Virus record (IMG/VR): IMGVR_UViG_2718218139_000008
DNA length: 63,885 nt
Source: a virus
Taxonomy: Duplodnaviria > Heunggongvirae > Uroviricota > Caudoviricetes
Strand: one strand, 5' to 3'
A program made the position numbers. Positions 15,001-18,000 of the stretch are shown here, in pieces (the stretch's first letter is position 1; each line of letters starts with the position of its first letter).

Positions 15001-18000
15001 ATATAACTTGTCACCAGAGGAAAGAAAATGTCACCGAAAAACCGGACCCGCAGAACAACAACCCGCAACATCCGATTTCCAAACCAGATGATTGAACAAA
15101 TTAACATCGCTCTTGACCAGAAAGGTTCAGAAAATTTTTCAGCGTGGGTTATTGAAGCCTGCAGAAGAAGATTAATTAATGAAAAATATTCTCAATTTGT
15201 ACCCAACAAAGACAAACACGACCAGAGCACCTGTTCAGACAGGTTTACTTAAACGACTTATATATGACACAAAAAGCGACCACTAAAGTCGCTTTTTCTT
15301 ATGGTAACAGGCAATAACTCTCTCAGATATTTTTTAGCATTTTTTTGACCGCGCGTTTCCGGACGTATTCTGTTCTCCTGTCCCTTTATATCGTCGGAAT
15401 ACCCGCCGCTCTTCAAATCCCATTCCCAACTCAGAATGTAGTCTGTTGACCGCTTGTTTTATTTCGGTCAGGTTCACCGGTGAAACCGGAGTCCGGCGCG
15501 CCTTACGCAAACACTCTGCTCGTTTCTGTGCCGCCACTTTTCTTTTCTGGTCATCACTTAGCTGTACCATCACTTTTGCCCATCGTTCAGCTGCTCTCCG
15601 GTACAGTCCTTTTTTCTCCAGACATTCTGCCACGTGATCATGTAGCATAAGTGACCTCCGATTATCTACAGACTGCCATCCTGAATTTACCTTCCCTTAA
15701 TGAAATAACAATAAAAAACAAACCACGCAAAAACAATAAAATAACACACAAAAAAACTAAATAATAAACAAAAATAATCACCTTATTTTATTATTTTTTG
15801 AGGGGGCAATTACTGAACAAAAAACGCTGACTATATACTCAAAACCAAACAACTATTCTGCCAATCAGGTATCATGGCAACACACGGAATTACCGTGTTT
15901 TTGCCTTCTCTGCCCATACAATACGGGCATATACTTCATACTCTATTGTAATATTTCTATCCATGCGCCCCACTCCATTTACCTGTAAATAATATTCAAA
16001 ATATTTATCACAGAAATCGTTTTTGGCCATGAACTGAGCACACTATAAAGTCCGGAACTGACTCTTTGTTAAATTACCTTAACGTTACCAGTAACACCTT
16101 CATAACAAAACATCACGGTATACACTGGGTACGGATATATTCCTGTGCTCCTTCCAGTTGCTTCTGCATTGCCATCAGCCGTTCTCTGAGGATGAAATAA
16201 TCCCGTTCAGCGGTGTCTGCCAGTCGGGGGCCGGTTGCATTATCCACGCCGGAGGTGCCGGTGGCTTCACGCACGGTACCGGAGCAGGTGGCGTTGATCC
16301 GCAGGCGCTTACGACCAGCGGCAACATCAGCACGCAGAGTTTCATTTTCAGCTCTCGCATCGGCTAATTCCCTCGAGTATCTGGCATCAAGTGCAGCGAC
16401 ATCACGCTGGCGTATCTGCATATCAGTAATTGTCGCGTTCGCCAGCTCCAGCTCACTGGCTTTTTTATCGCGCTGCTCTTTGTAGATGATGGCGTGATCA
16501 CGGTAATGATTCAGCCCCAGACTAAGCGCACCACAGGCCACCAGCAGGACAATGATAACCACGCACAGAACACGGTTCATATCACCACCAACGGATTGCC
16601 CAGACCAGAACAGCAATGGCCACAATACGAATGGCAAAAGCTGCCGCTCTTGTTAAATCCAGACTGGCTGGCGTCTCCACTTCAATGCCTTTCATAATGG
16701 ACAACCTCAGAAAGAATCTTTTATACTTCCTCACAGGGAAAGTACCTCCCTACCCATAATTTCTCCCTTGCCTTACTCAAGGTCAGAAAACACAAAACCC
16801 CGCTTGCTGCCAACAAACGGGGTTTTTACTTTTATTCACTTAGGTTTTACCAGTTTTCAGGATTTCGTGTTATCCACCCGCGTTGGCCAACGTCATTTTT
16901 CAGGAAAATATTCTGCTATCTGTCGATGTCCCAGCACGCCAGCGCGCTCTCCTGGTCACGCCGTGAGACCTGACCGTAGCAATTATTTGAACGGATACGG
17001 CAGTCTCTGCCACCGTCCTTAATCCACCAGCGAATCGCCTCACAGGCACCTTTTCGATCGCCTGCATTAATTCGTTTATAAAACGTCGACGGGAAGCACT
17101 TACCGGGGCCAATGTTGTACGGACAGAATGACGCGATCCCTGAGGTGTACTGGCAATAGCGGACACTACCATTTGTTCTTTTTTTAAGCAGCCATCTGAT
17201 GATATTTTTCCCTGAAGGCTGCCGGGGAGATATTCCCCAGACGAGAGTGACGACGCTGACGATTGTAGAAAATCTCAATGTATTCCCGTATTACTGAGAT
17301 GGCTTCATCCCGGTTATTAAAACGATAGTGGCTCAGGCTCTCATTTTTCAGCGTTCCCCAGAAGCTTTCCATCGGAGCGTTGTCGTAACAGTTACCTTTA
17401 CGCGACATTGATGTTTTCAGACCAAACTGCTCCTGTATGACCCGGTAATCGTATGCGCAGTACTGTGAACCTCGATCAGAGTGGTGGATTAGCCCGGCAG
17501 GTGGGCGCTGGCTCCTGAGCGCCATAAACAGGGCTTTACCTGTCAGCTCTTTTGTCATGCGCTCTCCCATGGCGTAGCCGACAATTTCGCACGTATAAAC
17601 ATCTTTGATGCCAGCGAGGTACAACCATCCCTCCTGTGTGGCAACATACGTCAGGTCCGCCACCCAGACCTGATTTGGTGCTGTAGGAGCGAACGTCTGG
17701 TTCAGCAGATTTGGCGCAACTGGCAGATTGTGGTTCGAGTTCGTAGTCGCTCTGAACTTGCGTTTCTGCTTACAGCGTAGCCTTAGCTCCTTACGAAGAC
17801 GTGCCAGTCGGTCACGACCAACGATGATGCCATTCTCTGCCAGCTCCGTCTGGAGCCGCCGGGTTCCATATGTTTCGCGAGTGCGGATATGTGCCACCTT
17901 AATCTCCAGTTTTAGCCGCTCATCACTTTGTTTTCTGTCTGAGGGTTCATGCTGTACCCAGTTGTAATAACCGCTCCTGGATACACCAAATACCTGACAC

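Follow-up and report, generated by a model that had tools for sequence, protein, structure and literature searches.

The 63,885-nucleotide stretch of DNA held as IMG/VR virus record IMGVR_UViG_2718218139_000008 (Caudoviricetes), hereafter the window, carries a gene for a transcriptional regulator of the PerC/Pch family. Judged by its sequence, this gene is an intact copy of pchA, a well-studied and already known prophage regulator of enterohaemorrhagic and related Escherichia coli that activates the enterocyte effacement locus (LEE) via the ler gene. The explanation that we propose, and in which we have high confidence, is that this pchA allele forms part of a moron-like cassette inserted between the Rz/Rz1 genes and the packaging genes of a lambdoid prophage at ydfJ, by now defective, from where its product would act on the LEE via ler. 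The window begins in ydfJ, and pch sits in the defective lambdoid prophage that is inserted there.

The pch coding sequence extends from 15334 to 15648 on the minus strand and encodes a protein of 104 residues that starts MLHDHVAECLEKKGLYRRAAERW; its assignment as a group-1 Pch (PchA allele) is based on the list of open reading frames (ORFs), on Pfam and on a comparison with Escherichia coli O157:H7 strain Sakai. An original prediction made from the DNA alone had proposed a PerC-family ORF of this length and had named a profile search as the test that could overturn it. The ORF is real and the outcome of that search favours the PerC assignment, with Pfam PerC (PF06069) matching the protein from end to end (residues 1-89, equivalent to profile positions 1-89 of 90) at 149.3 bits, against a cut-off of 22.6, and an E value of 3.8e-44. 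The protein is 100% identical to Sakai PchA (ECs_1091) and differs at one residue from PchB and at two from PchC, which places it among the group-1 forms. The exact protein sequence is present on at least 1000 contigs in public collections, and one public source labels it "PchABC family transcriptional regulator". A word-indexed homologue search with the protein returned just 16 close relatives and frameshift variants, and tblastn gave no further PerC-like gene anywhere in the window. The coding sequence is preceded by a Shine-Dalgarno sequence, GGAGG, read from the sequence at 15655..15659 on the minus strand and located 6 nt before the ATG, which is invariant across Sakai pchA, pchB and pchC according to the alignment described below.

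What is known of DNA binding, anti-silencing and the upstream regulators of Pch comes from the literature. The original prediction raised the possibility that prophage carriage is linked to host virulence through ler and the LEE; this was right, but it is a link that has been known since 2004-2005 and is established for a protein identical to that in the window (PMC4764244, PMC4456613, PMC6265319). Full LEE expression and adherence depend on pchA, pchB and pchC, genes that are located on lambdoid prophages (Iyoda & Watanabe 2004 and Porter et al. 2005, as cited in PMC4456613 and PMC6265319). Activation of LEE1 and relief of H-NS repression have both been demonstrated experimentally for the identical Sakai protein (PMC4764244). 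Pch binds the LEE1 promoter as well as many horizontally acquired loci that include nleG clusters, and it activates only where H-NS, StpA, Hha and YdgT repress, which it does by lowering H-NS occupancy; upon expression of PchA and Ler the nleG clusters lose H-NS occupancy (PMC4764244). The window copy would be expected to behave in the same manner, with Pch binding to the LEE1 promoter and to other horizontally acquired virulence loci and relieving silencing by H-NS, StpA and Hha. Ler would then rise, as would the LEE type III secretion system and prophage effectors, one example being an NleG gene of the same prophage. The latter is an ORF for an NleG-family type III secretion effector (1983..2903, plus strand; Pfam T3SS_NleG, E 8.8e-48; nleG7 in the annotation of relatives) at the prophage end that adjoins ydfJ, and from its sequence it appears to be a member of the Pch/Ler-controlled class of genes.

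The association between the cassette and ler was surveyed in 5426 complete E. coli genomes using an 860-bp cassette query and a ler query that includes the LEE1 promoter. The cassette is found in 672 of these genomes, with a median of 3 copies and as many as 5, while ler with its LEE1 promoter is found in 696. A chimeric query composed of the cassette plus ler matched 698 genomes, and the overlap obtained by inclusion-exclusion amounts to 670 genomes that have both, equal to 99.7% of those with the cassette and 96% of those with ler, as compared to the ~86 expected if the two were independent. Because 670 of 672 cassette genomes have ler, and because the same prophage encodes an NleG protein, the source host was very probably LEE-positive. 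Sequenced free phages almost never carry the pch cassette. Fifteen cassette copies are located on plasmids; the one examined, on an IncFIB plasmid (NZ_CP027549.1), belongs to a partial phage lysis module (holin, Rz1, pch) that has insertion sequence (IS) elements on its flanks.

The upstream region, pch and a bidirectional terminator together constitute one unit of roughly 1 kb. The upstream region, a putative regulatory region containing promoter and leader, comprises the 464 bp from the Rz stop codon to the pch ATG (15649..16112, minus strand). Just beyond the pch stop codon is a bidirectional intrinsic terminator with the structure A5-GCGAC-loop-GTCGC-T5 (15271..15297, both strands) that is common to pch and to a convergent ylcI-like gene. 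When its folding was compared with that of shuffled sequences, this hairpin gave -14.7 kcal/mol on the pch sense strand and -12.3 on the plus strand (z-scores -3.6 and -3.8); of 200 shuffles, 0 and 1, respectively, folded equally well, and a U-run is present 3' of the stem on either strand. In all 687 records that match the 860-bp cassette query the match extends over at least 80% of its length, which means that the AT-rich upstream region never occurs without the pch ORF. The order of Rz, a gap of 463-465 bp and pch is the same in the Sakai prophages Sp4, Sp11 and Sp14 and in strain 2013C-3264, and at these four loci pch has the orientation of the lysis genes. The window cassette thus lies in the lambdoid-prophage slot seen in Sp4, Sp11 and Sp14, directly downstream of Rz/Rz1 and ahead of the packaging genes. 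A relative that lacks pch, strain 08_3449, has the same terS, HNH and ylcI genes as well as the same Rz gene, and its homology to the window ends at 15162, in the 3' end of the ylcI-like gene, and restarts at 16150. The segment 15163-16149 is missing from this strain and the slot is filled by a different gene, which encodes a hypothetical protein of 74 residues, together with an IS600-family element. Because this strain carries other cargo in the pch slot, the Rz-to-terminase junction is a variable cargo site. In the classic moron layout a regulatory region, a gene and a terminator of deviant composition are present or absent as a unit between late genes. The pch cassette is likewise present or absent as a unit and has its own terminator, and by analogy it appears to be laid out like a phage moron, with an AT-rich regulatory region followed by the gene and the terminator.

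The genes that surround the cassette are those of a lysis module and a packaging module. The last lysis gene upstream of pch is the Rz spanin gene (16113..16580, minus strand; Pfam Phage_lysis, E 1.2e-48), within which Rz1 is embedded (16175-16360, minus strand; annotated in RefSeq relatives as a lysis protein or Rz1 lipoprotein). On the downstream side are the genes for an HNH endonuclease (14621-14986), the small terminase subunit (13768-14331) and the large terminase subunit (12467-13771). The cassette is bordered by the convergent YlcI/YnfO-family gene (15028..15252, plus strand; Pfam DUF3950, E 4.6e-19; NCBIfam YlcI_YnfO_N). The placement of the ORF between packaging genes and Rz in the original prediction is borne out by this arrangement, but the convergent ylcI-like gene in the flanking packaging module had been left out. 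Its location "inside the late operon" is correct as to position and orientation, but does not do justice to a self-contained cassette that has its own terminator and is accompanied by an IS-split endolysin gene.

The upstream region is 66.4% AT as compared to 50.5% for the whole window, which corresponds to the 99.8th percentile and makes it the second most AT-rich 464-bp stretch. Within it, a 111-bp core (15690-15800) has 54% A on the plus strand, a value among the highest in the window. The A-rich upstream region of about 460 bp that had been predicted is accurate in length and in AT content, but A-rich describes the plus strand; since pch is encoded on the minus strand, the region is T-rich in the sense orientation. 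This composition raises the alternative, already suggested in the original prediction, that the region is primarily an H-NS-silenced promoter that keeps pch off until anti-silencing occurs, which would add to the explanation given above and not replace it. In addition to being 66% AT, the region has 13 A/T-tracts that are 4 nt or longer (97th percentile), and H-NS is known to prefer AT-rich horizontally acquired DNA (PMC4764244). A PpchA-pchA-PLEE1 biosensor has also been reported to work only in an hns deletion strain, although the construct also holds the H-NS-silenced LEE1 promoter so that the effect is not assignable to PpchA (PMC7279287). However, the T-tracts of the upstream region lack helical phasing, and the 10-bp H-NS high-affinity motif is not enriched upstream of pch (1 match at up to 2 mismatches, 66th percentile). 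The literature searched contains no report of H-NS binding to pch or of hns-dependent pch expression, and the text supplements of the H-NS chromatin immunoprecipitation microarray (ChIP-chip) paper are without a site table. H-NS silencing of the pch promoter is no more than compatible with the base composition and the A/T-tracts, and we view it as a serious possibility that falls somewhat short of an even chance.

The upstream region had also been described as ORF-free, which it is not, as a 46-residue ORF is located at 15890..16030 on the minus strand. A second alternative is that the region specifies a separate product, either the protein encoded by this ORF or a small or antisense RNA that ends at a nearby hairpin. 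The ORF is open in 4 of the 4 copies compared, and at its end there is an interrupted hairpin (GGCAA..ACACGG-TAATT-CCGTGT..TTGCC, 15876-15905) that is stable on both strands with a z-score of about -4. A scan additionally gave a promoter-like site at 15765-15794 and a terminator-like site at 15882-15898, both on the plus strand. These observations are countered by the finding that 8 of 9 substitutions in the ORF among the four paralogous copies are nonsynonymous, and by the lack of a Pfam match or of annotation in the RefSeq records examined; the ORF is probably non-coding. Moreover, a search of Rfam over 15000-16400 at E values up to 1 gave no family match, promoter-like sites are no more numerous than in shuffled sequences and the hairpin is weakened in pchC. 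We consider it quite unlikely that the region specifies such a product. The hairpin is followed by an inverted repeat, TGCCA-N11-TGGCA, at 15859-15879; both elements are conserved in pchA and pchB, and the inverted repeat could be a binding site for a regulator.

To locate the differences among pch copies we aligned 931 nt, comprising the end of Rz, the upstream region, the gene and the terminator, from the window and from Sakai pchA (Sp4), pchB (Sp11) and pchC (Sp14). Over this entire cassette 7 positions distinguish the window from Sakai pchA (99.2% identity), none of them in the coding sequence. Variation among the four copies is concentrated in a T-rich tract (sense strand) that spans 15695..15807 on the minus strand and occupies 115 alignment columns, of which 41 (35.7%) are variable. 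In comparison, variable columns make up 0% of the Rz end, 5.9% of the distal 305 bp of the upstream region, 8.7% of the 46-bp proximal leader and 1.0% of the pch coding sequence, so that the tract is roughly 35 times as variable as the latter. As the tract differs from that of the window at only 3 of 115 columns in pchA, versus 34 in pchB and 12 in pchC, the window cassette can be classified by sequence as pchA-type, although the prophage that carries it is inserted at ydfJ, where Sakai has the pchB-carrying prophage Sp11. The tract differences would fit the differential regulation of PchA and PchB by LrhA that has been published (Honda et al. 2009, as cited in PMC4456613). We tentatively raise the idea, which we regard as doubtful, that the 115-bp tract is an exchangeable regulatory module, such that recombination between resident prophages could re-assort the inputs (LrhA, Lrp-butyrate and possibly H-NS) that act on each pch copy. 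If true, tract exchange would tune LEE expression strain by strain even while the prophage decays. H-NS silencing of the T-rich tract, or an antisense RNA inside it, would fit such an exchangeable module as well.

With regard to expression, pch is most likely transcribed in the lysogen from its own promoter within the 464-bp upstream region. Published work employs this region as the native promoter PpchA, responsive to Lrp-butyrate and to LrhA (PMC7279287, PMC4456613). Transcription of pchA responds to LrhA and to Lrp with butyrate, the latter in a loop with LeuO (PMC4456613, PMC7279287), and also responds to NtrC/sigma-S (PMC10714755, PMC13012123). The window promoter would be expected to respond to the same host regulators, namely LrhA, Lrp with butyrate and the stringent and nitrogen networks. 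A different view is that pch lacks a dedicated promoter and depends entirely on read-through of the Q-antiterminated late transcript upon prophage induction. The orientation of pch does match that of the lysis and packaging genes, and group-1 pch genes, which are functional, have transcripts that rise upon SOS induction (PMC6265319). There is also no convincing sigma-70 consensus upstream of pch, with a sense-strand scan giving one weak site (TTGCCA-17-AATAGT, 15880-15852). However, pchA is controlled by LrhA, Lrp-butyrate and NtrC/sigma-S in uninduced lysogens, and the upstream DNA acts as a promoter on plasmids (PMC4456613, PMC7279287, PMC10714755). In Sakai Sp4 the block of holin, endolysin, Rz and pchA has the opposite orientation to the remaining late region, with IS629 and ISEc8 at its borders, yet Sp4 pchA is the best-studied and main functional pch copy. 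In the window, the endolysin gene is interrupted by a 1265-bp IS element that lies between the start of the lysis genes and pch. Because of this split endolysin gene, a split large terminase gene and the absence of most tail genes, late-promoter read-through is unlikely to matter here, and as an exclusive mode of expression we judge it very unlikely.

Once transcribed from its own promoter, pch would be subject to tuning of its translation by the small RNA DicF. DicF is described as an activator of pchA translation that opens up a structure in which the ribosome-binding site is masked (Melson & Kendall 2019, as cited in PMC7769764 and PMC7873438). A DicF gene is found in the same prophage region of the window (34840..34891, plus strand; Rfam RF00039, 51.3 bits versus a gathering score of 48). 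The 5' half of this variant differs from the K-12 sequence. Regulator and published target therefore share one prophage region. Minimum free energy folds of the pch leader shifted with the boundaries chosen, and the published structure pairing the Shine-Dalgarno sequence with its anti-Shine-Dalgarno partner was not located among them.

The prophage that houses the cassette is extensively damaged. An IS3-family (IS600-like) element of 1265 bp (17141..18405, minus strand) divides the endolysin gene into halves at 18402-18716 and about 16916-17140, and homology with an intact relative (L001) ends at 17140. The large terminase gene is also IS-split (10843-11343 and 12467-13771), and between the end of the effector gene and the head genes only tail fibre and Lom genes are seen, with most tail genes missing. 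This state of decay raises the alternative that the window pch is an inactive remnant that, like the pchD/pchE group that does not activate the LEE, is merely riding in a decaying prophage. However, the coding sequence, Shine-Dalgarno, upstream region and terminator are all intact, and the cassette retains the 99.2% nucleotide identity over 931 nt, and the 100% protein identity, to the functional Sakai pchA cassette; we regard an inactive remnant as extremely unlikely. An intact pch cassette in an otherwise IS-wrecked prophage suggests that the host keeps the regulator for its own benefit.

Several additional features of the window were noted. Seven 100%-identical IS3-family copies of ~1265 bp are present in 64 kb (6155-7419, 11205-12470, 17141-18405, 41496-42760, 45372-46602, 58781-60044 and 62685-63885, the last being cut by the window end), and RefSeq relatives assign them to the IS600 family. 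Seven identical copies are a sign that the source strain has recently gone through a burst of IS insertion. Two IS66-family elements (38361-41186 and 42926-45342), each a three-ORF unit with a DDE transposase of 512 or 537 residues, lie between the remains of two tandem prophages. Rfam additionally detects the anti-small RNA AgvB (96.5 bits; 22057-22118, plus strand) and STnc100 copies at 22119-22311 and 49084-49274 (both minus strand), which adjoin late-region tRNA genes of the two tandem prophages. Such an AgvB gene is a typical finding in prophages of enterohaemorrhagic E. coli (EHEC). Coverage of large pieces of the window by any one complete RefSeq E. coli genome reaches 87% at most.

A number of points weigh against the proposed explanation. 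The IS damage to the prophage is heavy and may affect pch expression. No promoter or transcription start was identified in the upstream region, where the weak sigma-70-like site is no more than shuffles give, and the literature searched yielded no mapped pchA transcription start. A ViennaRNA duplexfold pairing of DicF with pch mRNA gave -44.3 kcal/mol, a value no better than that of 31% of shuffled small RNAs or random window pieces. The presence of ler in the host is deduced, as it is not readable from the window. Lastly, an AlphaFold2 model of Pch built from a 4-sequence alignment is all-helical with residues 88-104 disordered, but it is a low-confidence model (predicted local distance difference test 67, predicted template-modelling score 0.32) that says nothing on DNA-binding mode; Foldseek with this model gave no PDB match at E < 7.8, and phmmer gave no match to PDB sequences.

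The broader interest of these genes is that they link prophages to control of the LEE type III secretion system in EHEC and in many enteropathogenic E. coli (EPEC), and a strain that has them is thereby marked as regulatory-competent for attaching-and-effacing virulence. Current understanding is not changed by the present finding, and its immediate value is for annotation, as the gene should carry the label pchA-type pch. What is mildly new is descriptive: the occurrence of a pchA-type cassette at an Sp11-like position, the focusing of divergence on the T-rich tract and the persistence of an intact cassette in an IS-riddled prophage.

The closest known counterpart is PchA of Sakai Sp4, with which the window shares 100% protein identity, a pchA-type tract, the slot following Rz/Rz1 and the gap of ~464 bp. 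It differs in that the window cassette is located in a ydfJ prophage and adjoins an HNH/HK97-type packaging module, while the lysis-pchA block of Sp4 lies in inverted orientation with IS629 on its flanks. PchB (ECs_2182, Sp11) and PchC (ECs_2737, Sp14) have the family, length and genomic slot in common with the window gene, and Sp11 is also inserted at ydfJ and likewise has nleG genes at that end; the difference from these paralogues lies in the upstream T-rich tract, at 34 and 12 of 115 columns, respectively. A more distant relative is the founding member of the family, PerC of EPEC strain E2348/69, encoded on the pEAF plasmid pMAR2, to which BLASTP aligns the window protein with 47% identity over 87 residues (E 1e-27). 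Both belong to the same Pfam family and have the LE-KG-YRRAA-RWA motif, and PerC too activates the LEE1/ler promoter (PMC4764244, PMC4456613), though it is dispensable for EPEC LEE expression under many conditions (PMC4764244). In contrast to Pch, PerC has 89 residues and lacks the C-terminal tail (Pch residues 88-104, predicted to be disordered), and its gene is plasmid-borne, following perB in the perABC operon and not forming part of a prophage cassette. In its organization the window cassette can also be compared with the bor and lom morons of phage lambda described by Hendrix, Juhala and colleagues, with which it shares an extra gene that has a regulatory region, a terminator of its own and deviant composition, and that is situated between conserved late genes. 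As with bor and lom, the benefit would go to the lysogen and not to the phage, and the gene is missing from relatives that are otherwise collinear. The pch cassette differs from these lambda morons in its cargo, which is a transcription regulator for a distant pathogenicity island and not a surface protein.

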